Sequence record: PQ850608.1
Source: Escherichia phage HermannAdler_Bas98
Strand: one strand, 5' to 3'
Length of the DNA stretch: 64,000 bases
Below, piece by piece: positions 6,404 through 63,734 of the stretch; the first letter of the stretch is position 1; each line of letters starts with the position of its first letter. The notes below the pieces were generated by a model that saw only the letters and a program-made list of their open reading frames with translations, made no database searches and was not told the origin of the DNA. Made by a program: the position numbers and the translations under genes.

Positions 6404-6579
6404 AGAGGAAGTTATGCAAAAGATTATTCAGTCACGTTATGTTAAAGTGCGAAATATTAATTGCAACTCTTTGCTTTCTTGGAAATGGGCCGTTTACGAC
6501 TCGATGTTAATTGGCGTTTTAGTTGCAGGAGTGCTATTTAATATTCACTGAATTCATCGGCAAAGGATTGCCGCGAGTT

Positions 6580-6870
6580 TTATACGTATAATGACGTATC
6601 ATCCGTATCAAGTAAGTTATTGTTTTCAAAAGAATCTTACGGATGATACGGATGATACGCGTTGCCGCCGTACTATATAGGAATTCAAATAAATTAATTT
6701 AAAATTATATATCTAATTTAATTTTATTTTTTTATAAACTCTTATATATGAAAAGTATCCGTATCATCCGTATCATCCGTAGCACACCAGTGATAGCGCG
6801 GCTTATACACCGATACGGATAAAAATACGCCTCATTTTATCCGTATCATCCGTATCACACTAATAAAGGC
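6580..6870. repeat. Iteron array flanking AT-rich spacer (copy A of a duplicated element)
   Basis: Multiple direct and inverted copies of CCGTATCAT / GGATGATACGGATGATACG around an AT-rich core (AATTAATTTAAAATTATAT...TTTTTTT); homologous to 58900-59170. Confidence 0.7.
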
Positions 6871-6914
6871 GCGGCTATATTGGTTGTTATACATATTCAA
6901 ACCATAATTATTGT

Positions 6915-6943
6915 TTGCCTAAGTTTTTTTCATTAGATATAAT
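6915..6943 (+). promoter_or_regulatory. Sigma70-like promoter TTGCCT-N17-TATAAT upstream of scaffold/capsid genes
   Basis: -35 TTGCCT 6915-6920, 17-nt spacer, -10 TATAAT 6938-6943; RBS GAGGGTGG then ATG 6973. Confidence 0.6.
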
Positions 6944-6972
6944 ACACAATACTTATTTGAGGGTGGATGCGA

Positions 6973-26084: not shown

Positions 26085-27872
26085 ATGCCAACACTTATTA
26101 ACAGACCTTTCGCGCAAAGCGGTGATGTATCCGTGGTGCCGGATGCAAGCCCAAGCGGTTATGTGAACTTCCAGCGCGGCTACACCCCTGACTATGCACT
26201 TGCGCTGGAAGCCGGAAACGTCGCTGCGAAAGCAGTTGAACGTGAGTCGATGAACTGGTTGCTGAATCTGATCACCGACAACCTTATGTTCATCCAGGAC
26301 CACGGCGCTCAACAGTATTTCTCGTCTGACTTGAAGCCAGATGGATACCCGAAAAATGCCATCGTTGTCAGCAACTCTGGCACCCCTTCAGCGCCTGAAT
26401 GGCGCATTTTCCAGAGCGTGGTTGACGGCAACACCAGCGCAGTACCAGCTAACGGCGAAACGGAATCTTGGCAAGAATTGACGCTGCCTAGCGAAGCGCG
26501 AAAATATATTCCTATGCCTGCTGGCGGCGATGCGCAAAACCCGTATTTTGTTCGCGGACTGATTTCAAACTTTGTGGACTTTGATAATATCACGACTTCC
26601 ACAACTATTGTTATTCAATCTGACGCAGTCGCCGCTCTATGCTCTAACATCCCGAACGCGGTTGGTGCGACGAAGGTTGCAGGTCGTCTACAGGTTTGCG
26701 CTTGGCAGGTTGATGCGCAGACTTTCGCCCTGCAACAATACACGTCAATGAACGGATATGTTTTCACCCGCTCTTATACGTCTGGTGCTTGGAGTGCTTG
26801 GATTCAAAATGCAACTGTTCAAGACGTGCAAATCGGCACGCCGAATCTTGCATCAGGTAAAGGCGCACAAGATATAATCCTTACCGTTCCGGCAGGTTAT
26901 GCATGGCCGCCGTCAGCAGGTAGTCGCCTGACAATTGTCAATGATGTAACGACTACCGGACCTGTTACCGTGACCATTGGTGCAAACAAAGTTGCAGTCC
27001 TTGGATTCGACGGCGGCGAGCTGCCAGCAGGGTCCATCGTCGGCCTTCTTCCTTTTACTATTATTTATGACGGCACCGTTTGGCGTCTTCTTCAAGCATT
27101 CGGCGCGGCGCAAATCGGTGTCGATGCTAGTGAGCCGCAACAGTTTGTTACAAAGCGCCAACTCGATGCTCTGGCCGCGAAGTTGATCACTATGGGTGAT
27201 GTGTTCGAAGTCGGTGAGACTCGATTCTTGACTAATGGCACCAACCCAAATACTAAACTGGGCGCTTACGGTCAGGTATGGACCAGATTGCCTGATAACA
27301 TGGTCATCAGGACGTCTGGCACGGCAAGAAACGGTCTTGACACTGGAGGTGCAGACTCTGTTACTCTTACTGCCGCCATGCTTCCTCTGCACAATCACAG
27401 CGTGAACATAACTACGCGACAAAGTGGTCCATGGTCCAATACCACTGGAGACGCAGGCAACCATAACCACACAGGCGATACCAGTCAAAACGGTGCTCAC
27501 GTGCACGGAATGGATTCAGCAGGTAACCACCACCATGACAGTAGCTGGGGTGAAGCAAATACGAATGATGCGCGGTATGGCGTGTATGATGGGACGCACA
27601 ACAACTTCGGAAGTCGAAAGGGCGGCGACTGGGACAACTATAAATACAACACCTCAACTAACGGCAACCACGTTCACAATATTCAATCTTCTGGGTCACA
27701 CACTCATGGGTTGAATATAAATTACGCTGGCAATCACAGCCATGGATATACCCTCCCCGCTCACACTCACGATGTGGTCGGTAACACTGGCGATGCAGGG
27801 CAGTCCGTCCCAACGGCTGTTTCAACTCTGCCGCGATATGTCGTCTTGAACGGCTGGTACAGAAGCGCATAA
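26085..27872 (+). CDS. Tail fibre protein with C-terminal His-x-His repeats
   Basis: Start at Met20 behind RBS AGAGGA; C-terminal region has repeated HxH motifs (HNHSVN, HNHTGD, HVHGMD, NHHHD, HVHNIQ, HTHGLN, HSHGYT, HTHDV) like metal-coordinating fibre tips. Confidence 0.6.
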   Translation: MPTLINRPFAQSGDVSVVPDASPSGYVNFQRGYTPDYALALEAGNVAAKAVERESMNWLLNLITDNLMFIQDHGAQQYFSSDLKPDGYPKNAIVVSNSGTPSAPEWRIFQSVVDGNTSAVPANGETESWQELTLPSEARKYIPMPAGGDAQNPYFVRGLISNFVDFDNITTSTTIVIQSDAVAALCSNIPNAVGATKVAGRLQVCAWQVDAQTFALQQYTSMNGYVFTRSYTSGAWSAWIQNATVQDVQIGTPNLASGKGAQDIILTVPAGYAWPPSAGSRLTIVNDVTTTGPVTVTIGANKVAVLGFDGGELPAGSIVGLLPFTIIYDGTVWRLLQAFGAAQIGVDASEPQQFVTKRQLDALAAKLITMGDVFEVGETRFLTNGTNPNTKLGAYGQVWTRLPDNMVIRTSGTARNGLDTGGADSVTLTAAMLPLHNHSVNITTRQSGPWSNTTGDAGNHNHTGDTSQNGAHVHGMDSAGNHHHDSSWGEANTNDARYGVYDGTHNNFGSRKGGDWDNYKYNTSTNGNHVHNIQSSGSHTHGLNINYAGNHSHGYTLPAHTHDVVGNTGDAGQSVPTAVSTLPRYVVLNGWYRSA

Positions 27873-27880
27873 GGTGATTT

Positions 27881-28525
27881 ATGATTAATGCAAACGTAAT
27901 ATCTAAAGGGACCGGATGCAGCATGGATGTTGCTGAAAAATGGGTCGACCCCTTCAAGCAGGCTTGTGAGCACTACGGAATCAAAAGCAAGAATGCCATC
28001 GCTGCGCTGCTTGCAAACGTAGGAGTGGAAACAGGCAGTCTGAAGACCTTTGTGGAAAACCTGAATTATTCCGCTCAAGGTCTTGCTAATACGTGGCCTA
28101 GCCGTTACAGCGCCAGCGGTCGTTTCGGTGGCGCACCAAACTCCTTGGCATTGTCGATTGCCCGTAAACCAATGGAAATCGCCAATAATACATATGCAAA
28201 CCGAATGGGAAATGGTTCGGTAGCATCTGGCGACGGTTGGAAGTACCGTGGCCGTGGTGCCATTCAGCTGACTGGAAAGGATAACTATGCAGAGTATTCA
28301 AAGCAATCAGGGTATGACGCATTGAATAACCCTGACATTTTGACTGAGCCGAAATACATTGCTGACAGCGCGGCATGGTTCTTCAAGAACAGCGGTTGCA
28401 TTCCACTTGCCGATGCGGGCGCATTTGATTCGACCGTGAAGCGGATTAACGGGGCCGCGCCAAATACGGCTAACCATGGGGATTTGCGACGGAAGCGTTA
28501 CAAGGAAGCACTAGCAGTTATGTAA
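27881..28525 (+). CDS. Endolysin, GH19 chitinase-like lysozyme
   Basis: Signature YRGRGAIQLTGKDNY typical of glycoside hydrolase family 19 muramidases; 214 aa. Confidence 0.8.
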   Translation: MINANVISKGTGCSMDVAEKWVDPFKQACEHYGIKSKNAIAALLANVGVETGSLKTFVENLNYSAQGLANTWPSRYSASGRFGGAPNSLALSIARKPMEIANNTYANRMGNGSVASGDGWKYRGRGAIQLTGKDNYAEYSKQSGYDALNNPDILTEPKYIADSAAWFFKNSGCIPLADAGAFDSTVKRINGAAPNTANHGDLRRKRYKEALAVM

Positions 28526-28526
28526 G

Positions 28527-28558
28527 AAAAGGCCCATATGGGCCTTTGTTTATTTTAC
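28527..28558. terminator. Bidirectional rho-independent terminator between convergent blocks
   Basis: AAAAGGCCCATATGGGCCTTTGTTTATTTT: perfect GC-rich stem flanked by A-run and T-run. Confidence 0.75.
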
Positions 28559-28762
28559 GGCTTCAACCTGGACGGGCGGCGCGGAACTTGTATCGATGTC
28601 TGGCAAGTCGAAGTAATACCCCGCCATGCCAATCACGCCAACAATCGCGGCCCGTGCCACCTTGTTGCTAATTGACTCCCCAATAAGCTTTACCAACAGG
28701 GACAAGATTTGAGACGTCAAAGCCTTTTTCAGCCTTTTGTTTTCTTCCAAATCTTTCTGCAT
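28550..28762 (-). CDS. Small membrane protein (holin candidate, weak)
   Basis: About 70 aa from Met7 of track ORF; one hydrophobic segment (ARAAIVGVIGMAGYYF); convergent with endolysin. Confidence 0.3.
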   Translation of the reverse strand: MQKDLEENKRLKKALTSQILSLLVKLIGESISNKVARAAIVGVIGMAGYYFDLPDIDTSSAPPVQVEAVK

Positions 28763-28776
28763 AACTACCACCCATG

Positions 28777-29319
28777 TCAACGCACATCCTGTGTCTTAAC
28801 ATTACCTGAAGCATCTCTTAATGGCAGTGGATAGTAGGCCATTTGGTAGTCTGATACGCCTTCAACATGATAAAACACGATTACGTCTTTGCTGTTGATG
28901 AGCATGTTAACGACATCTGATTTATCTTCTGGAGTGAGTATGAGTGCGCCGCCTGTCCTGCTGTCTACTGCAACAGGGTATGTCTTATCGACAAGGCCGC
29001 TGTCCAATGTATTATACCTGACAACGATTTCAGGGGCATCAACTTTTGCAATTGACATTCCGAACACAAACGACACGACTTGGCGACCGCGATCATTCAT
29101 TACGCACATCTTTTCCTTGTCAAACCTTTCCTTTATCACATCGTATTTATTCCAGCAAAATTCGAACGATTGGCCGTTGTTAAAATATCTCGTTAACACT
29201 TTGGCATTACTATTTGGCGGCGTAAACATACTTTCAGCCGCTGCACTTTTGGTGAAGAACAAAACTGTCAGCATAGCCATGATGATGATCAAAACAATCT
29301 TTAAGTTTTTCGATTTCAT
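28777..29319 (-). CDS. Secreted / periplasmic protein with signal peptide
   Basis: N-terminus MKSKNLKIVLIIIMAMLTVLFFTKSAAAES is a classic signal peptide; 180 aa. Confidence 0.5.
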   Translation of the reverse strand: MKSKNLKIVLIIIMAMLTVLFFTKSAAAESMFTPPNSNAKVLTRYFNNGQSFEFCWNKYDVIKERFDKEKMCVMNDRGRQVVSFVFGMSIAKVDAPEIVVRYNTLDSGLVDKTYPVAVDSRTGGALILTPEDKSDVVNMLINSKDVIVFYHVEGVSDYQMAYYPLPLRDASGNVKTQDVR

Positions 29320-29396
29320 TATAATTCACCTTTTGATTACGAATATTAATAGTATAGGCCGAAGGTTTTGAAAGTAAATAAGGCGAAAGGTAAATA

Positions 29397-29424
29397 AAAG
29401 AAAAGCCGGAGATTTCCGGCTTTA
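29397..29424 (-). terminator. Rho-independent terminator for minus-strand operon
   Basis: AGCCGGAGATTTCCGGCT hairpin with T-run on minus strand (A-run on plus). Confidence 0.6.
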
Positions 29425-29495
29425 TGTATACACTGTATATTAAATTCTATAAAACGACGCGATAGATTATCCGCACCAATTACTTATCTAGTGTC

Positions 29496-30470
29496 TTAAA
29501 AATACTCCATATCGGTAATATCACGGAAGCATTTATACAAAGCAGAGCGCGGCACGTCGACGATGCCAAAGTTAAAGAATTTATACGTTAGGTATTTATC
29601 GCGATAGTTCTCGCGATTCTCCCAAAGCATTTTACGCTCTGCCATAGGCATTGAACCAGCGGAGACGCGGAAAGGAATCATTTCACCTTTCTCATCCACA
29701 TATTTTGGATTGACGACTACGAATGAGCCAAGGTATCCTTTCGCAACTAAACCTTCAGCCTCTTTTGAACGCTTGGTGCGACCCAATTCGTCAATGAATG
29801 CTTCGTTGTTGTTCTCCATCATCTCAACGAAGTCTATGATCAACCCTTCTTCATCGGTCCACGGCTTGTCCTTCCACACATCACGTGACTTCGGCGTCGC
29901 GCGGCCATGCTTATATTTGCCCGTCCAAGACTTGCCATACAAGCCTTCATAGCCAAGCTGGTCTGCTTCGATTTGCATTGCCGCGTACTGGTCCATATTT
30001 TCGATGTTGCGATATTCGAGAGCGCGAAGGAATGGACGTCGGCCATGGTCAATGAGATGTTGATTGACCTCAGCAACACGTCGATTGTACTTCTCATAAC
30101 GGGCCGAGAATGGCAAATCAGGTTCGCTAAAGTCATCAAACACCCACCATGTAAAGTTAGTGATTGCATCAGTGTTCATGCATGCAGTATAGGCCTGTTG
30201 CATGACGTTCTTGTCATTTGGATTGCCGTCGATTAGCTCTCCATCAAGTCCGTGAATTAATTCACCCAAGAAGAGGAACTCTTTTTTGATTTGAATGTTG
30301 CGCAGCGCCATGCCGGACGTGCCCATTGGCAAGTTGTCATACGCCATTGCGCGTATGCCATCGACCTTGAATGACAATCCGCAAGGCAGCGGCACGTCTT
30401 CGCCGCGCTCGATTATTTGCTTACGCTGGCAACCCTTCATTGGTTTTAATGCTTTGATTTCTCCTGCCAT
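29496..30470 (-). CDS. ATP-dependent DNA ligase
   Basis: Adenylation motif I KVDGIR (FKVDGIRAMAY); start at ATG behind RBS AAGGAG; about 324 aa. Confidence 0.8.
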   Translation of the reverse strand: MAGEIKALKPMKGCQRKQIIERGEDVPLPCGLSFKVDGIRAMAYDNLPMGTSGMALRNIQIKKEFLFLGELIHGLDGELIDGNPNDKNVMQQAYTACMNTDAITNFTWWVFDDFSEPDLPFSARYEKYNRRVAEVNQHLIDHGRRPFLRALEYRNIENMDQYAAMQIEADQLGYEGLYGKSWTGKYKHGRATPKSRDVWKDKPWTDEEGLIIDFVEMMENNNEAFIDELGRTKRSKEAEGLVAKGYLGSFVVVNPKYVDEKGEMIPFRVSAGSMPMAERKMLWENRENYRDKYLTYKFFNFGIVDVPRSALYKCFRDITDMEYF

Positions 30471-31063
30471 CACTCAAACTCCTTATTCATCACTTGTTCC
30501 AGCGCATAGGCGTAATCCTGATCAGTCGATTTGATAAACGTGCCGTTGTACATGACGCCTTTGCGGTCTTTGATGTCTTCGTAGGCAGCTTGCGCACAGT
30601 CGGATAAGCGAAGGCCATAATCATGAGCTACGCCGGAAAGGTAATCGACTGCGGCCATGATGGTGACGTCAATATCCATGGTTTGATTCTTGGCAATAGC
30701 ATCACCAAGTCGTCCAAGGGTCTTTGCCAGGCGAAGGATAAATGAATGAGGGTGAGCGCCTTTATCAGCGCAACCGCCGCCATTAATGTTTTCGATTTCA
30801 GCACCGTTTTGCGCTGCCAGGATGGTCAACACAACAAGGCAATCGCCAATGTCGTCCTTAATTGCAGCTTGCAAGTCACAGATGGCCTGCTCTGTATATC
30901 CAATTTCAGGGTCGAAGAACACAAGGTCATGGAGTTGATCAACGTGGTCGGTTAACTCCCCAAACTCGCTGATAAGCTTCGGGTATTGGTCCTTAAGGTC
31001 GCAACCTTGGATGATGTTACGGTCAGAAGCCCACTGGCGAATGTTTGCATAAATCTGTTTCAT
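30470..31063 (-). CDS. MazG-like nucleotide pyrophosphohydrolase (putative)
   Basis: All-alpha character with EFGEL and DIGDCLVVL motifs resembling MazG EExGE / GDxL signatures; ATGA overlap with ligase. Confidence 0.5.
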   Translation of the reverse strand: MKQIYANIRQWASDRNIIQGCDLKDQYPKLISEFGELTDHVDQLHDLVFFDPEIGYTEQAICDLQAAIKDDIGDCLVVLTILAAQNGAEIENINGGGCADKGAHPHSFILRLAKTLGRLGDAIAKNQTMDIDVTIMAAVDYLSGVAHDYGLRLSDCAQAAYEDIKDRKGVMYNGTFIKSTDQDYAYALEQVMNKEFE

Positions 31064-31578
31064 TTATTTTCCTTTGATGCATTGAATTGATCGATTTTTA
31101 TTTTAGCCTGATTATAAGTATCAATCAAGCCATTAACTTTCTCTTTTAATCGATTTGTTTCTGCGGCGAACTGAACAAGAAATCTGACATCTTCTTCTGA
31201 TAGTCCACAGTTTCCTTCTGGGATAGAGAGGCGTCCAGTGGTCGCAGAGTCGGGCACACTCCTGAGTAACTCACGGGAGCAGCTGAGTTGCTCGCGCAGC
31301 TTGATATTCCCAGACTTGTAACGAGCAATAGTGTCATCAGCAACCAGTTGCGCTTCCTGGCGACCTTTCTCATATGCCGATGCCGATTCAACCTGTAAAG
31401 ATGCAATTTGCTCTTCGAGTGCATTTATCTTGTCCTTACGCTCATTAAGCGATGTCAGATATTGATTATCCTTGGCCAGTGATGCGTTGGTTTGCTGCAG
31501 GTCTTCAACGTATGATCCAGCGGCAAACGCGCCAACAAGGGCCAGAATCTTCAGGAGCGGTACAATTCTTTCTATCAT
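31060..31578 (-). CDS. Rz: Rz-like i-spanin
   Basis: N-terminal transmembrane segment (IVPLLKILALVGAFAAGSYV), coiled-coil periplasmic region, 172 aa, with embedded out-of-frame lipoprotein ORF. Confidence 0.6.
   Translation of the reverse strand: MIERIVPLLKILALVGAFAAGSYVEDLQQTNASLAKDNQYLTSLNERKDKINALEEQIASLQVESASAYEKGRQEAQLVADDTIARYKSGNIKLREQLSCSRELLRSVPDSATTGRLSIPEGNCGLSEEDVRFLVQFAAETNRLKEKVNGLIDTYNQAKIKIDQFNASKENK
31146..31337 (-). CDS. Rz1: Rz1-like o-spanin lipoprotein, embedded in Rz in another frame
   Basis: From Met30 of track ORF: MTLLLVTSLGISSCAS has signal plus lipobox (ISSC), Pro-rich; entirely inside 31060-31578. Confidence 0.55.
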   Translation of the reverse strand: MTLLLVTSLGISSCASNSAAPVSYSGVCPTLRPLDASLSQKETVDYQKKMSDFLFSSPQKQID

Positions 31579-31635
31579 GATGCACCAGATAAATAAAAGG
31601 CCGCCAATCGGCAGCCTTGTTGATTTGATTGTCGA

Positions 31636-32496
31636 TTAAAACTCTTCTGCGTCGGTCGGAGTTTCATTGACAGGACCAGCGGCACCGCTTGCTTCTTCCT
31701 GCTTGCTGCGGTCGATGTTGACGTTGCCGCCCACTACGTCATTGTGGAATGCCTTGGCGACTTCGTACAGACCTTTGTCCTGCACCAGACCTTCCAACTC
31801 AAACTTCAGAACGGACCAGGTGTTGCCGTCTTTGGACTGAGATGCAGTGCCCATGCGAACAATGTTCATAAAGGTCGGCGGCGTTTTCAGGCCCTGCGGA
31901 GTCTGAACTTTCTTCTGCTGCAGAGCGGTCATCAGCATGCGAGACGGCTTGATCATGGAAGAAGTCAGGGACAGCATTGCGCTACCAAATTCACCCGTTT
32001 CTTCGTTCAACAGAATCACGAAGTGGTTACGTGTATCTGCATAGTAAGGAGATTTCTTCTCGTGCACTTTGCCGTTTTCGTCCGGCACAAATACCTTACC
32101 GTTGATCTCAACAGCGCGGCCTGCCGCGACTTCTGCATCAACGTGCTCTTTGGTGAATTCACCTTTAAAGCCTTTATCGTCGGACTCGCGACCGCCCCAA
32201 AGGATGAAGGTGCGTTTGAATGCGCAAGGGATGATCTGCACGCCTTTCTTGCCGTCATACAACTCACCAGTGACGGTGTTGTACAGCATGCCAGCTTTTG
32301 CGCCAGGAACGTGTTTAGGATCATCTTCGTCGACCATAGGTGACATCTTCTGCAGGACGACGATAAAAGGAATGGCATACGCATCGGCATCGGCACCTTC
32401 AAAACCAGCGCCAAAATCGGTCATGTCGACAAAATCAGCCATAGCGGACATCTGGGTGTTTTTCACTGCAACTTCGGTGGTTTCTTTCTTAGACAT
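31636..32496 (-). CDS. Single-stranded DNA-binding / annealing protein (putative)
   Basis: 286 aa with acidic C-terminal tail ending ...TDAEEF, as in SSB-type proteins; located in replication block. Confidence 0.45.
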   Translation of the reverse strand: MSKKETTEVAVKNTQMSAMADFVDMTDFGAGFEGADADAYAIPFIVVLQKMSPMVDEDDPKHVPGAKAGMLYNTVTGELYDGKKGVQIIPCAFKRTFILWGGRESDDKGFKGEFTKEHVDAEVAAGRAVEINGKVFVPDENGKVHEKKSPYYADTRNHFVILLNEETGEFGSAMLSLTSSMIKPSRMLMTALQQKKVQTPQGLKTPPTFMNIVRMGTASQSKDGNTWSVLKFELEGLVQDKGLYEVAKAFHNDVVGGNVNIDRSKQEEASGAAGPVNETPTDAEEF

Positions 32497-32555
32497 TTGA
32501 TATTTTCCTATAGTATCAAGTTTCGTGGCAACCTGATTTCAAGATAAAGGTTAAA

Positions 32556-33113
32556 TTACTTTTTGCTTTTAGGCAAGGTTATTTTAGCTTCTTTGTATTC
32601 AAAAACGCTAATATCTTCACTAACTGGATTGCCTGCTTCCAGCTGTTCTTTTACAAACGACTTCAGTGTAGCAGAATGAACGCCTTGTTTCAATGTGGCT
32701 TCAACACCATCTTCACGCAGCGCGGCAACAATCTCTTGCGCCTGTTCGATTTCTTCGCGACCGAACTCAGCCGTGACGCTGGACTTGATCAGGCCGCCGT
32801 AACCGTTGTTGACAAGCCAATCGAAAACTTTTAATTCGTTTTCTTTCTTGATCGAAGCATTCACCTTGGACTCGACCTTGATTTTGGTCTTGTCCTCAAG
32901 CTTGATCTCAGACACGCCAAGCTCCTCCATAACGCCAGGAAGCAGAACAGTTTTGATTTCACTGATGCGCTGCTTTTGCATATCAGCTTCATCTTCAAGC
33001 TCTGTCAAAGCCTCTTGGCGTTCTGCCAGTTCAGATACTAAGCGCGCAAGGCGCTCTTGAATGCTCTCAGGAGCGACCTGCGGCAAATCATCTTCCCAAT
33101 TAATATTGCTCAT
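32556..33113 (-). CDS. Hypothetical protein with N-terminal coiled coil
   Basis: 185 aa; between SSB-like and helicase genes; no confident motif. Confidence 0.45.
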   Translation of the reverse strand: MSNINWEDDLPQVAPESIQERLARLVSELAERQEALTELEDEADMQKQRISEIKTVLLPGVMEELGVSEIKLEDKTKIKVESKVNASIKKENELKVFDWLVNNGYGGLIKSSVTAEFGREEIEQAQEIVAALREDGVEATLKQGVHSATLKSFVKEQLEAGNPVSEDISVFEYKEAKITLPKSKK

Positions 33114-39442: not shown

Positions 39443-39658
39443 TTATTGATTAATTACTGTGTTGTCTTCGTCCTGTTTCTTTTCAGGAGCGGGTGTGACA
39501 ACTTCAAATTTAGGTTTGGGTAATTCACCTTTAGCGCCTGGGACTTCAACGACAATCTTTTTGTCAGGCTCAACAGGATTTGGAACTTCAAATTTGATTG
39601 TGTATCCTAATACAACAAGAAGCACTAAACCGATTACCGCTACCCAGGCTTTGTTCAT
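39443..39658 (-). CDS. Small membrane-anchored Pro/Lys/Glu-rich protein
   Basis: N-terminal TM (AWVAVIGLVLLVVLGY) followed by Pro-rich extended segment; 71 aa. Confidence 0.45.
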   Translation of the reverse strand: MNKAWVAVIGLVLLVVLGYTIKFEVPNPVEPDKKIVVEVPGAKGELPKPKFEVVTPAPEKKQDEDNTVINQ

Positions 39659-39660
39659 GG

Positions 39661-39828
39661 TTATTCGCCCTTATCTTTGCCTTCTATGGAATAAGTCTCA
39701 ATGGAACCGACGCGCTCGTGGTTAACCTTTGCGTTTTCGATTCTTATTACTTCAAATCCAACGCCTTCTTGATCAATCTTCACTTCTGCCACGTCGCCAA
39801 TCACTTCTACAACAACTTTGATAGTCAT
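39661..39828 (-). CDS. Small hypothetical protein (about 55 aa, below track length cutoff)
   Basis: Read by eye as MTIKVVVEVIGDVAEVKIDQEGVGFEV...; fills gap between flanking genes; coordinates approximate within 1-2 nt. Confidence 0.3.
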   Translation of the reverse strand: MTIKVVVEVIGDVAEVKIDQEGVGFEVIRIENAKVNHERVGSIETYSIEGKDKGE

Positions 39829-43917: not shown

Positions 43918-44763
43918 TTATTCCGCTTGATCACCGTCTTCGGCATCGTCGTTGGATTCAACATCGACAAACTCGATGTGGCCCATCTCTTCCAGCTTGC
44001 TCAGGTAGGAGCGAACGGAAGCGCCAAACAGCTGATCTTTAACTTTCTCGCCCAGCTCATCGATAGACTGCGCCACGCCAACTTCGCCTTCTTTGATCGC
44101 CGCCAGAACGCGCCCACGGGTGGAGTGCTCCTGCGGCTGGCTCAGGCCGTTGCCAGTGTAGATGAAGTGAGTAGCTTTTGCACGGCGCTGACCGTTTGCC
44201 TTTTTGGCAGCCTTGCGCTCTGCGATGGCTTTGCGACGTTCTTCAGCTTCTTTCTTACGCTGTTCTTTTTGCTGTTCTGCAGCTTCTTTCGCCGCGATCT
44301 TAGCAGCTTCACGCTCTGCCTTGCGTTTCGCTTTCGCTTCTTCTTTAGCCTTCTCTTTTTCGGCCTTTGCTGCAGCACGGGCTTGATCACGCTCTGCTTT
44401 CTTAGCAGCAGCTTGTTCAGCTTTCAGGCGCTTGGCTTCTTCTTTGGCCTTTGCCTTTTCGATTTCTTTTGCTGCTTTAGCGGCTTCACGCTCTGCTTTC
44501 TTAGCAGCAGCCTTTTCTGCACGCTCTTTAGCTTTCTTAGCTGCTTCTTCAGCACGCTTCTGAGCCTTCTCATCAGCAGCCTGTTTGCGCTTCAGCGCGG
44601 CTTCTTCACGCTTGGCTTGTTTTTCCTGCTCACGCTTCTGGCGTTTTTCTTCGGCTTCTTTCTTTTTAGCCAGGCGTTTTTCTTCAGCCACGCGACGACG
44701 TTCTGCTGCGGCTGCTTGTTTTTCTTCTTTAGATAATACTTTGATTGCTTCGGCCATATTCAC
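43918..44763 (-). CDS. Lys/Glu/Ala-rich repeat protein with globular C-terminal domain
   Basis: About 200 aa of KEA-rich low-complexity helix-like repeats (AEEKRLAKKKEAEEKRQK...), then an ordered domain with acidic tail; underlying DNA has tandem repeats. Confidence 0.55.
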   Translation of the reverse strand: MNMAEAIKVLSKEEKQAAAAERRRVAEEKRLAKKKEAEEKRQKREQEKQAKREEAALKRKQAADEKAQKRAEEAAKKAKERAEKAAAKKAEREAAKAAKEIEKAKAKEEAKRLKAEQAAAKKAERDQARAAAKAEKEKAKEEAKAKRKAEREAAKIAAKEAAEQQKEQRKKEAEERRKAIAERKAAKKANGQRRAKATHFIYTGNGLSQPQEHSTRGRVLAAIKEGEVGVAQSIDELGEKVKDQLFGASVRSYLSKLEEMGHIEFVDVESNDDAEDGDQAE

Positions 44764-58422: not shown

Positions 58423-58899
58423 GCCTGTGTAATGGGAGGCTTTTGTGGTTATTTACGATTCAAGGCTGTAATTTAAGAGAGCGAAAATATTATAATAATT
58501 TATCAAGATTATTGCATATTGTGGCAATCAACGTTTATACGTATTTATGACAGTTTAATCCACTAAATAATACGGATAGAACAGTGAGGAAAATACAGCG
58601 GTGTATTTTAGTGTAAATATTGAATCAAAAATAAATAATTATGGTGCTATTATATACGCAGATTGTTTGTAATTTATAGGATATTTTATCGTGGAGTATT
58701 GGCTAACGGTGCGTTAGCCGTGGGTCTTGGTGCTTGTGGTGTTGATGCTCAGAATTTTAATAATGTTTTTAGTTTTAGTAATCGTAGTCAATGATGATAC
58801 GTATAAGAAAATGAGAGTCACCCCTTCACAGGATATTGTACCGTGGCCCTGTGGTGCGCCGCGCCTGGGATTGCTGGTATACACTGGTGCTATTTTGCC

Positions 58900-59170
58900 G
58901 CGAAGGCAGTCATTCATACGTATCATGACGTATCATTGGGCTATTGATTTATAAGGAAAAATACGCTGATACGGATGATACGGGTGCAAACATAATATAT
59001 ATAGAATTCCAGAAAATTAATTAACTCCATTTTGAATTAATTTAAATTAATTTTTTTCTACATCCTCATACTTATACTAAACTTATATTCATACGTATCA
59101 TCCGTAAGATATAAGTAAAAACAAGGACTTGCGGCAATACGGATGATACGTCATGATACGCTTCGACCAG
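58900..59170. repeat. Iteron array flanking AT-rich spacer (copy B of a duplicated element)
   Basis: ACGTATCATGACGTATCAT, GATACGGATGATACG, CAATACGGATGATACGTCATGATACG around AT-rich core (AATTAATTAACTCCATTTTGAATTAATTTAAATTAATTTTTTT); collinear with 6580-6870. Confidence 0.7.
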
Positions 59171-62286: not shown

Positions 62287-62937
62287 TCCCTATCTCGATG
62301 CGCTCCTACGCGAAAACTCCTTTATCCTTCCCTTCGTCGTCGCATAATCTTCTTCGAGATGCGTCTTAGTTCGCATAACAGGTATTACGTTAAATGGAGA
62401 ACATCGCGTAAGTCCTTGTTTTATATAGACACCTATATCGGACCGTTAGGGCGGGTCGCGTAAGTCGTTGTTTTATAAAGGCACAAAACTTTCCCTTCGT
62501 TCCGAACTAAAACGAGAAATATGCCGACCCTTCGCCCGAAAATAGTACGTATGCGAAATTACATTCATCTCGAATAATCCCTCCCGATATTATCCTACAC
62601 GCAATCATTCGCTTTCGAATCATTATGCTTCATATTATTATGCGTCGAATCATTCGCTTTCGAATTGTAACGCTGGAAACTGTAACGTCGATTGATTATT
62701 GCGTTCGTGTGGTTTTTATGGCATGGGTCTTTTGGTGCGTTTTGCTACTTGATGGAATTTGCGGTACACTAATCAAAATACGACACATTTGGTCCACTAA
62801 CTTTTCAAAGAAAAAGTCCTAGACAGTACCGTACTATTTTGTACCCACAGGAAATTTGCAGTACACTCCTGAGCGGCAGGCAAAATAAAGGGCCGCACTA
62901 AGCGACCCACGATTCACGGTTAAATCAGCAACACCCA

Positions 62938-63380: not shown

Positions 63381-63497
63381 TCAAATCGGTTTGTTAATTG
63401 TAACGATTGAATTTACTTATCCAACCAATCAATAAGCGCAATCATAGCAACAACAAATACTGCGCTGATTGCTAATATGATCAAGAACATCACAAAA

Positions 63498-63734
63498 TCA
63501 ACATTCATCAATCGATACCAATTGTGCAGGGTCGCCGGATACAGTTGCGCCGATGATACCCATATGAGAGAAAAATTCTGAATAAACTTCTTTCCAGTAC
63601 TTGCGCGCAGCTTTCTGGGCTTGCCCTTTGCGCTTGTAGCTTTTACCTTGGAAGATGAAGCGGTCGTTTGCTGCGTTATATTCCACCACACCTTCCAGCC
63701 ATTGTAAGAAAGCTACTGATTCATTTTGATTCAT
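63498..63734 (-). CDS. Hypothetical small protein
   Basis: 78-aa ORF. Confidence 0.4.
   Translation of the reverse strand: MNQNESVAFLQWLEGVVEYNAANDRFIFQGKSYKRKGQAQKAARKYWKEVYSEFFSHMGIIGATVSGDPAQLVSIDEC

Follow-up and report, generated by a model that had tools for sequence, protein, structure and literature searches.

How does a phage whose lysis genes are scattered encode the steps of host lysis, and which of its proteins serves as the holin? The question was raised by an earlier note on the window, the 64,000-nucleotide stretch of Escherichia phage HermannAdler_Bas98 (PQ850608.1) analysed here, which described dispersed lysis genes. The genome belongs to the genus Wifcevirus (PB1-like E. 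coli phages); HansTraber_Bas100, another Escherichia phage, is 99.4% identical to it at the nucleotide level over positions 27000-32500, while 27 further Wifcevirus records are 91-96% identical (Mansfield, 91.7%). All of the features listed in the note are present (Table 1), and two of the three standard Gram-negative phage lysis steps are very probably encoded, by genes dispersed as in large virulent myophages. Because the endolysin, i-spanin and o-spanin are annotated in the GenBank records of Bas100 (Bas100_0032, endolysin; 0037, Rz-like spanin; 0038, o-spanin) and Mansfield (CPT_Mansfield_052, 057 and 058), as they also are in ECML-117, this gene set is the known Wifcevirus system, with nothing new in the endolysin or spanin identities. 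The window matches Bas100 and Mansfield in its lysis genes and in their order, strands and coordinates. Relative to Bas100, it has small insertions (39509-39825 and 63413-63503) and a mosaic early region, with no other difference of substance.

Table 1 Features of the window that bear on lysis
Feature	Positions	Strand	Description and basis
45-aa tail-anchored membrane ORF	6414-6551	+	late head operon; basic N-terminus, C-terminal hydrophobic segment
Endolysin, GH19/SPN1S-KTN6-type muramidase	27881-28525	+	214 aa; PHROGs, Pfam and PDB homology
GC-rich hairpin	28528-28547	.	between convergent endolysin and 70-aa genes; terminator scan
70-aa conserved small protein	28550-28762	-	PHROG 5165 'gp33'; candidate holin or lysis regulator
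180-aa protein, predicted periplasmic	28777-29319	-	Sec-type signal peptide
Sigma-70-like promoter match	29351-29378	-	TTTACT-16-TATACT, 9/12 matches; upstream of 180-aa gene
Terminator-like hairpin	29402-29423	-	after ligase gene; terminator scan
MazG-like gene	30470-31063		PHROG 1992, E = 1.2e-62
Rz-type i-spanin	31060-31578	-	172 aa; PHROGs, tblastn, architecture
Rz1-type o-spanin, embedded	31146-31424	-	92 aa; lipobox, PHROGs, conservation
Terminator-like hairpin, strong	31597-31618	-	9 pairs, 6 GC, then T-run; directly upstream of Rz
Pam3-gp34-like gene	31636-32496		Pfam, PHROGs
31-aa hydrophobic peptide ORF	63413-63508	-	in ~90-nt insertion absent from Bas100

The gene that ends the plus-strand tail operon had been read as a GH19-type endolysin, and homology bears this out. 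Its product matches PHROG 181 ('endolysin', E = 1.4e-69), Pfam Glyco_hydro_19 (30.5 bits; cut-off, 25.5) and two PDB entries, 8p8e, a Pbunavirus-type endolysin (E = 1.2e-72), and 4ok7, the SPN1S endolysin (E = 2.7e-28). Homology to the SPN1S and Pbunavirus (KTN6-type) enzymes is full-length and includes the Glu pair: Glu50 and Glu59 align with Glu51 and Glu60 of the Pbunavirus homologue, which have been named as catalytic residues (PMC11861027). The Pbunavirus endolysins are 54% identical to the present enzyme and their gene likewise ends the tail operon, which is not the case in SPN1S. No difference from either endolysin was found, and the activity of the present enzyme is predicted from its sequence.

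The proposed check for a SAR or signal sequence returned none: residues 1-60 contain no membrane-like segment, the best 17-residue window scoring +7.2 on the Hessa scale. The endolysin is thus predicted to be soluble, without either element. It would be produced from the gene that closes the late tail operon and, having no export signal, would build up in the cytoplasm; expression timing, here and for all other genes, was deduced solely from the order of the genes and from pattern scans. Lysis without a holin, through self-export of the endolysin by a SAR or signal sequence or with a pinholin sufficing, is extremely unlikely. Its sole support is that an annotated holin is missing from the records of relatives, and against it stand the score given above, an N-terminus with nine charged residues among the first 37 and no hydrophobic run, and Pbunavirus and SPN1S homologues whose solved structures cover essentially the whole chain (220 and 223 residues).

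The spanin pair lies 2.5 kb from the endolysin on the opposite strand, where an embedded Rz/Rz1 arrangement with an out-of-frame lipobox protein had been noted within the replication-gene block. Rz matches PHROG 1327 ('Rz-like spanin', E = 2e-26) and, in tblastn, the Rz genes of PY54 (5e-13), Mica and LIET2, which lie inside or adjoin canonical lysis cassettes; in PY54 and Mica these distant homologues sit in holin-endolysin-Rz/Rz1 cassettes. The tblastn search with the Rz family gave no Pseudomonas phage match, and the Pfam Rz family gave no match to the present protein at E ≤ 0.01. An N-terminal hydrophobic segment (residues 8-24) forms the membrane anchor, followed by a helical, charge-rich periplasmic part with two Cys (C99 and C124). 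The Rz1 frame lies fully within the Rz gene, in the +1 frame, and carries the lipobox I-S-S-C with a predicted lipidated Cys43 (codon 31296-31298). An internal Met18 (31371-31373) is conserved, and a start there would yield a 25-residue signal peptide. Mature Rz1 is ~50 aa long, contains Pro and has one further Cys.

It is scarcely credible that the Rz1 frame is a chance ORF in a phage with a one-component or incomplete spanin. Rz1 does match PHROG 4306 ('Rz-like spanin') weakly (E = 3.7e-4), and alternative-frame ORFs of at least 92 codons are common, occurring in 1164 of 5000 synonymous-codon shuffles of Rz; however, an embedded ORF with the lipoprotein-like architecture of signal peptide and lipobox arose in just 35 (0.7%). 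Mansfield, Bas100, WFC and the diverged metagenomic relative L017 all preserve the frame together with the lipobox Cys and the motif YSGVCPTL.PLDASLSQKETVDYQ. A relative ~60% identical in the neighbouring genes retains the lipobox Cys, the second Cys and the 20-residue motif despite amino-acid changes, and the distant Rz homologue of Mica is annotated with the identical embedded arrangement. Sequence thus identifies Rz and Rz1 as the i-spanin and o-spanin. After removal of the wall, inner-membrane Rz and the outer-membrane lipoprotein Rz1 would form a complex that fuses the two membranes, by analogy with lambda. The lambda proteins share the N-terminal i-spanin anchor, the helical periplasmic domain and its two Cys, the small Pro-containing o-spanin lipoprotein with one extra Cys, and an o-spanin gene nested, in the +1 frame, within that of the i-spanin. 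Unlike the lambda genes, the present pair, whose function is predicted, lies outside any holin-endolysin-spanin cassette, alone in the replication block. In T4, a virulent myophage, the endolysin, holin and spanin genes (e, t, rI and pseT.3/pseT.2) are likewise scattered over the genome with no cassette. T4 shares this scatter and no sequence relationship with the present phage, and its holin is known, whereas Wifcevirus offers only candidates.

Within the replication block, the spanins occupy a slot between a MazG-like gene, correctly identified in the note, and a Pam3-gp34-like gene. The label 'SSB-like' given to the latter is unconfirmed, its matches being confined to Pam3_Gp34 and PHROG 2402, families without an assigned function. 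The hairpin upstream of Rz is also annotated in Mansfield and WFC. Pbunavirus has the same synteny as Wifcevirus, comprising tail genes, endolysin, a convergent small PHROG-5165 gene, ligase, MazG-like gene, slot, Pam3 gp34-like and gp33-like genes, and helicase; the slot itself differs, with a 201-aa membrane protein in Pbunavirus and Rz/Rz1 in Wifcevirus. In KPP12 (Pbunavirus) this protein is reported to have three transmembrane domains (PMC3008698), while Luteibacter phage Pluto has a soluble 192-aa protein at the site and contig L015 has an empty slot. Such variable content among PB1-like lineages suggests host-specific acquisition of the spanin pair.

The inner membrane would be opened by a holin beyond recognition by homology, most probably a small membrane protein specific to the genus. 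The 201-aa Pbunavirus protein was proposed as a holin solely because of where its gene lies and the membrane segments predicted in it (PMC3008698); tblastn against the window and Bas100 returned no homologue of it, or of a 145-aa protein that some Pbunavirus annotations call 'holin'. The Mansfield and Bas100 records, both fully inspected, carry no holin annotation, and no candidate matches the holin families of Pfam, PHROGs or NCBIfam. In agreement with the earlier note, no recognisable holin adjoins the endolysin. Among the 112 ORFs of our greedy map, which covers 95.5% of the window, no small protein has at least two hydrophobic segments, and the candidates within the window, mainly the 70-aa protein and secondarily a 45-aa ORF, are all single-segment. 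The four segments of the PY54 and Mica proteins annotated as holins served as controls for the segment scores.

The 70-aa ORF is present as described and is a weak holin candidate. It has a basic N-terminus, an amphipathic helix, a Gly-rich hydrophobic stretch of 14-17 residues and an acidic, Pro-rich tail, matches PHROG 5165 with E = 1.9e-8, is 38% identical to KPP12 gp46 and belongs to a family with eight representatives among 1.84 billion proteins, in which G28, R37, G48 and Y50 are invariant. Its gene is convergent with the GH19 endolysin gene in all contigs examined; the hairpin between the two is probably a bidirectional terminator-like element, and Mansfield has terminators annotated on both strands at the matching site. 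We consider it unlikely that throughout the PB1-like clade this protein serves as the holin, a single-pass type with a short Gly-rich membrane segment. The idea draws on its convergent position beside the endolysin in Wifcevirus, in Pbunavirus KPP12 and USP1 and in contigs L015-L017, where it is the sole small protein with a hydrophobic segment near the endolysin common to both genera, on a size that fits holins, and on its basic N-terminus, invariant Arg before the hydrophobic stretch, GxxGxxG and charged hydrophilic C-terminus; Pluto, moreover, has an unrelated single-pass membrane protein at the equivalent position. Yet the hydrophobic core is short and its score (4.05) is weaker than those of all four control segments, no holin family claims it, and Pbunavirus possesses better, multi-segment candidates. 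The gene also lies on the strand opposite to the late operon and belongs to a small unit that carries promoter-like and terminator-like sites of its own, a layout closer to an early or moron cassette than to a late lysis gene.

The 70-aa gene shares this unit with the gene for the 180-aa protein; the two are set apart because a hairpin, matched by an annotated terminator in Mansfield, follows the ligase gene. The 180-aa protein has a signal peptide with n-region MKSKNLK, a 15-residue h-region and an AAA/E cleavage-like site (hydrophobic score -2.72), and its mature form carries two Cys. Homologues occur in Wifcevirus-like phages only, and Pfam, PHROGs and NCBIfam gave no match. The promoter-like site upstream is a pattern match, of a kind no commoner in the region than in shuffled sequence. 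A possible, though doubtful, reading is that the two genes (29319-28550) form an envelope-directed accessory cassette, for example for superinfection exclusion or for wall or receptor protection, with the proximity to the endolysin incidental. The autonomous layout (terminator, promoter-like site, RBS, two genes, terminator) accords with this, and the cleavable signal peptide and restriction to Wifcevirus-like phages fit host-specific envelope functions. Early envelope proteins such as T4 imm and sp and T5 llp, whose gene adjoins that of the receptor-binding protein, offer precedents. Against it, the 70-aa gene stays beside the endolysin across ~35-50% identity and the 180-aa gene does not, PHROGs and NCBIfam revealed no similarity to known exclusion proteins, and the AlphaFold models of the 180-aa protein (pLDDT 51 and 48) are too poor for a fold search.

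For a genus-specific holin, the top-ranked candidates are the genus's sole small two-segment membrane proteins, of 71 and 113 aa, encoded ~4 kb beyond the window end upstream of the T-shaped tail-fibre gene; since they lie outside the 64-kb window, they could not have been seen in the earlier reading. Taken jointly, the chance that one or other is the holin approaches even at best; part of the remaining probability goes to some protein other than the candidates named here. In Bas100, gp106 and gp110 are the only small proteins with two hydrophobic segments. As both fall outside the window, we infer their presence in this exact genome from relatives: the region that holds them is present in 28 of 28 records, and the genes were seen in every gene map inspected (WFC, kaset, Mansfield and three metagenomic contigs). 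The segments of gp110 score 1.38 and -2.78, like those of the annotated PY54 and Mica holins. An equally good reading of gp106 is as a signal-peptide protein, such as a receptor-masking or exclusion factor beside the tail-fibre gene. The acidic C-terminus of gp110 is just 6 residues long, which speaks against a holin, as typical holins have long charged tails.

Two minor ORFs complete the list. A tail-anchored peptide near the window end had been offered as a second weak holin candidate; the ORF exists, but we rejected it as a holin and regard it as accessory because just 3 of the 28 related records cover it. The 45-aa ORF of the late head operon, also tail-anchored, is very unlikely to be the holin. 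It had been overlooked in the earlier note, and its architecture and position equal those of gp22 of Pbunavirus Epa13.

Over 27000-32500, megablast aligned the window along its full length to Escherichia phage HansTraber_Bas100 (Bas100) at 99.4% identity, to 27 further Wifcevirus records at 91-96% and, through weaker, partial matches, to Pseudomonas PB1-like phages. Whole-window alignment showed collinearity with positions 1 to approximately 63,720 of Bas100 (68,486 bp), position 1 being where the large terminase gene begins; about 4.5 kb of the genome falls outside the window. At the lysis loci the Bas100 record reads 'endolysin', 'Rz-like spanin' and 'o-spanin', while that of the Wifcevirus phage Mansfield, from the Center for Phage Technology, reads 'endolysin glycosyl hydrolase', 'i-spanin' and 'o-spanin', with notes citing a SwissProt entry for the i-spanin of the related phage ECML-117. 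The endolysin and spanin set is thus a known system, and finding it repeats the public annotation of near-identical phages; as textbook components, the endolysin and spanin pair are of small significance as they stand.

Lysis genes and small membrane-protein genes considered in the window
Feature	Coordinates	Strand	Description
Endolysin	27881-28525	+	214 aa, GH19/SPN1S-type
Holin candidate	28550-28762	-	70 aa, single hydrophobic stretch, PHROG 5165
180-aa protein	28777-29319	-	Classical signal peptide
Rz i-spanin (predicted)	31060-31578	-	172 aa, PHROG 1327, N-terminal anchor
Rz1 o-spanin (predicted)	31146-31424	-	92 aa, within Rz, other frame, lipobox
Minor holin candidate	6414-6551	+	45 aa, tail-anchored, head operon
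71-aa protein	39443-39658	-	N-terminal membrane anchor, absent from Bas100

The GH19-type endolysin read on the plus strand in the earlier note was well supported, matching PHROG 181 'endolysin' (E=1.4e-69), Pfam PF00182 Glyco_hydro_19 (30.5 bits, cut-off 25.5), PDB 8p8e (E=1.2e-72), whose sequence agrees with the endolysin of the Pbunavirus phage KPP12, and the SPN1S endolysin 4ok7 (E=2.7e-28). Residues E50 and E59 (GVETG...VENLNYS) align with Glu51/Glu60, the proposed catalytic pair of the endolysin of Pbunavirus, the sister genus, and muramidase activity is on record for the KTN6 homologue (PMC11861027). A hairpin terminator follows the gene, which closes the plus-strand tail operon. We looked for a SAR or signal sequence in the first 60 residues and found none, with no window scoring below +7 on the Hessa scale; nine of the first 37 residues are charged. 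The product is therefore predicted to be a soluble muramidase and, lacking such a sequence, can be expected to need a hole-forming holin. Endolysin has been detected by mass spectrometry in preparations of vB_Eco4M-7 and ECML-117, with 69% sequence coverage in the latter (PMC7048862, PMC11990801).

The embedded spanin pair also held up: Rz1 lies entirely within Rz, on the same minus strand and in a different frame, and carries a lipobox. Rz matched PHROG 1327 'Rz-like spanin' (E=2e-26) and gave no match to the Pfam Rz family at E<=0.01. By tblastn it was related to Rz of PY54 (5e-13), Mica (2e-6) and LIET2; the PY54 and Mica genes reside in canonical holin-endolysin-Rz cassettes. Its hydrophobic anchor spans residues 8-24 (score 2.41), the remainder, the predicted periplasmic part, is rich in charged residues and glutamine, and its size is close to that of lambda Rz. 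Rz1 matched the PHROG spanin family weakly (E=3.7e-4). A pattern test ([LVI][ASTVI][GAS]C, with a residue other than Asp at +2) placed its lipobox after a basic n-region and a hydrophobic core (...LLLVTSLG-ISS-C43, followed by Ala). A long alternative-frame ORF arose in 23% of synonymous shuffles of Rz, and is not unusual; the signal-peptide-plus-lipobox architecture arose in only 35 of 5000. The Rz1 signal peptide and lipobox are retained in four relatives: Mansfield, Bas100 and WFC keep the Rz1 frame, both cysteines and a 20-residue motif, as does L017, a diverged metagenomic relative, despite many amino-acid changes. Rz contains two cysteines and Rz1 one besides the lipidated residue, which, as seen from sequence alone, is consistent with the lambda spanins. 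Rz is thus predicted to be anchored in the inner membrane and Rz1 to be an outer-membrane lipoprotein.

As to the flanks of the pair, the MazG-like gene proposed on one side was confirmed, while the 'SSB-like' assignment on the other was not: the gene at 31636-32496(-) matched only Pam3_Gp34 / PHROG 2402. Its product ends in an acidic tip (...DAEEF) resembling SSB tails. The neighbouring gene, 32556-33113(-), is Pam3 gp33-like (DUF7307). By gene size and position, this family appears to be the 'u-spanin' of one Pbunavirus annotation (PMC9583000); no hydrophobic segment was found in its members from the window and KPP12.

We compared the slot flanked by the MazG-like and Pam3-gp34-like genes in the window (30470-31635) and in three comparison sequences, L008 (9180-10390), L014 (6204-7451) and L015 (3835-4567). 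Its occupant is Rz/Rz1 in Wifcevirus, a 201-aa membrane protein in Pbunavirus and a soluble 192-aa protein in the Luteibacter phage Pluto; in L015, a 69.7-kb metagenomic PB1-like relative, the slot is empty. Because its content differs among PB1-like lineages, the slot looks like an exchange site for host-specific envelope genes. A tblastn search with the Rz family returned no match from a Pseudomonas phage, and the spanin pair probably came, unaccompanied by a holin, from enterobacterial phages.

The absence of a clear holin, also stated in the earlier note, was borne out. Reading every annotated feature of the Mansfield and Bas100 records revealed none, full-text search found no Wifcevirus paper describing one, and the Mansfield announcement and the BASEL completion and vB_Eco4M-7 papers make no mention of a holin. 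In the literature searched, we found no experimentally supported holin for Wifcevirus or Pbunavirus. Two putative Pbunavirus holins have been put forward: the 201-aa membrane protein of the slot described above, reported to have three transmembrane domains and proposed from its position and predicted segments (PMC3008698), and a 145-aa protein given its 'holin' label by an annotation pipeline (PMC9583000), in which we found three hydrophobic segments. Homologues of these two candidates (KPP12 gp49, Epa13 gp34) were absent from the window and Bas100. Among the 112 ORFs of a greedy map covering 95.5% of the window, no small protein had at least two hydrophobic segments. The gap is genuine but modest.

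Within the window, the leading candidate is the 70-aa protein, which the earlier note had rated as weak. The protein's hydrophobic stretch of 14-17 residues scored 4.05, a weaker value than that of any of the four segments in the annotated PY54 and Mica holins used as controls (-1.1 to 3.8). The protein has only eight representatives among 1.84 billion proteins, and its gene is convergent with the adjoining endolysin gene in every contig examined. In the protein alignment, a basic N-terminus and amphipathic helix are followed by an invariant arginine, a glycine-rich hydrophobic stretch and a variable, acidic, proline-rich tail. Its size and charged, hydrophilic C-terminus are those of a holin, with a tail that is acidic rather than basic, and it matched no described holin family in Pfam, PHROG-lysis or NCBIfam. 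The 70-aa and 180-aa genes form one small unit that carries an RBS and terminator-like and promoter-like elements of its own, so late expression of the 70-aa gene is not evident. The 180-aa protein is confined to Wifcevirus-like phages, and its AlphaFold models were poor (pLDDT 51 and 48, with and without an alignment). Neither BLASTP nor hhalign supported its homology to the membrane protein at the same position in Pluto. For the 45-aa ORF, an ORF of the same architecture occupies the equivalent location in Pbunavirus.

Further membrane-protein ORFs were considered. The tail-anchored 31-aa peptide at 63413-63508(-), named as a possible holin in the earlier note, lies in an insertion absent from Bas100 and covered by only 3 of 28 relatives, and we rejected it. 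The 71-aa protein, with a Pro/Lys/Glu-rich tail after its anchor, overlaps a 316-bp insertion relative to Bas100 (39509-39825) that is shared with Mansfield as gene 067. Remaining single-segment ORFs of the early region encode signal peptides or are very short. An apparent 269-aa 'multi-transmembrane' ORF with eight segments (43927-44736(+)) proved to be a low-complexity F/L/S/C translation of the antisense of a Lys/Glu-rich gene; relatives have that gene annotated as a TolA protein. Within the MazG gene, a hydrophobic ORF (30628-30804) has a hydrophobic part that is not conserved in L017. The ORFs at 58727-58954 and 62625-62822 fall within AT-rich, poorly coding stretches at terminal-repeat boundaries and have no annotation in relatives.

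In complete relatives, the only small two-segment proteins are those corresponding to Bas100 gp110 (71 aa) and gp106 (113 aa). Both are minus-strand products of the interval separating the terminase gene from the T-shaped tail-fibre gene, about 4 kb beyond the window end or, equivalently, 0.5-1.7 kb upstream of window position 1 when the map is drawn as a circle. All 28 Wifcevirus records contain this region, and each gene map inspected showed both genes. gp106 shows 97-98% identity across the genus, even where gp110 falls to 76%, and has a basic C-terminal tail. In size and segment pattern gp110 resembles a two-segment holin, but its acidic C-terminus is only six residues long. Together with gp108 (77 aa, weak C-terminal segment), they form a cluster of small membrane proteins upstream of the tail-fibre gene (Bas100 66820-68017). 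Pbunavirus phages encode similarly built but non-homologous small membrane proteins in an opposite-strand block adjoining the terminase gene.

Neither gp110 nor gp106 matched any described family, and the 71-aa two-segment, 70-aa and 180-aa proteins were found in large databases only in Wifcevirus or PB1-like relatives. Our ranking puts the gp110/gp106 pair at the top, then the 70-aa protein, with the 45-aa ORF far behind. We give a low probability to the proposal that the PB1-like holin belongs to a family unrecognised so far, represented by the 70-aa protein, whose putative membrane segment is glycine-rich and unusually short, or, in Wifcevirus, by a small membrane protein of the tail-fibre operon.

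On the lambda and T4 models, the muramidase would build up in the cytoplasm late in the infection cycle; at a set time a holin would open the inner membrane and, after wall degradation, the Rz-Rz1 complex would fuse the inner and outer membranes. Spanin genes could safely reside among replication genes, because intact peptidoglycan would keep the spanins inactive. Wifcevirus phages are very fast-lysing, with development reported complete in about 10 minutes (PMC7048862) and an adsorption-to-release time given as 3-5 minutes (PMC11990801), and phage therapy makes wide use of their Pbunavirus relatives; it is the holin that sets lysis timing. The search is now narrowed to four small conserved membrane proteins, for which BASEL phages Bas98-101 offer direct test material.

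A 416-nt non-coding gap (6552-6967) separates the 45-aa ORF from the protease gene in the head operon and contains TCATCCGTATCA six times, with copies facing either way, around an AT-rich core. Three further copies lie at 58914-59100, near 59.0 kb; in Mansfield, the equivalent place is the physical end of the genome and the boundary of the terminal repeat. In total, the motif matched 10 times in the window, against 0.25 expected, and may act as an origin, in packaging or in the binding of a regulator. The Pbunavirus phage Epa13 has a gap of comparable size at the place equivalent to 6552-6967.
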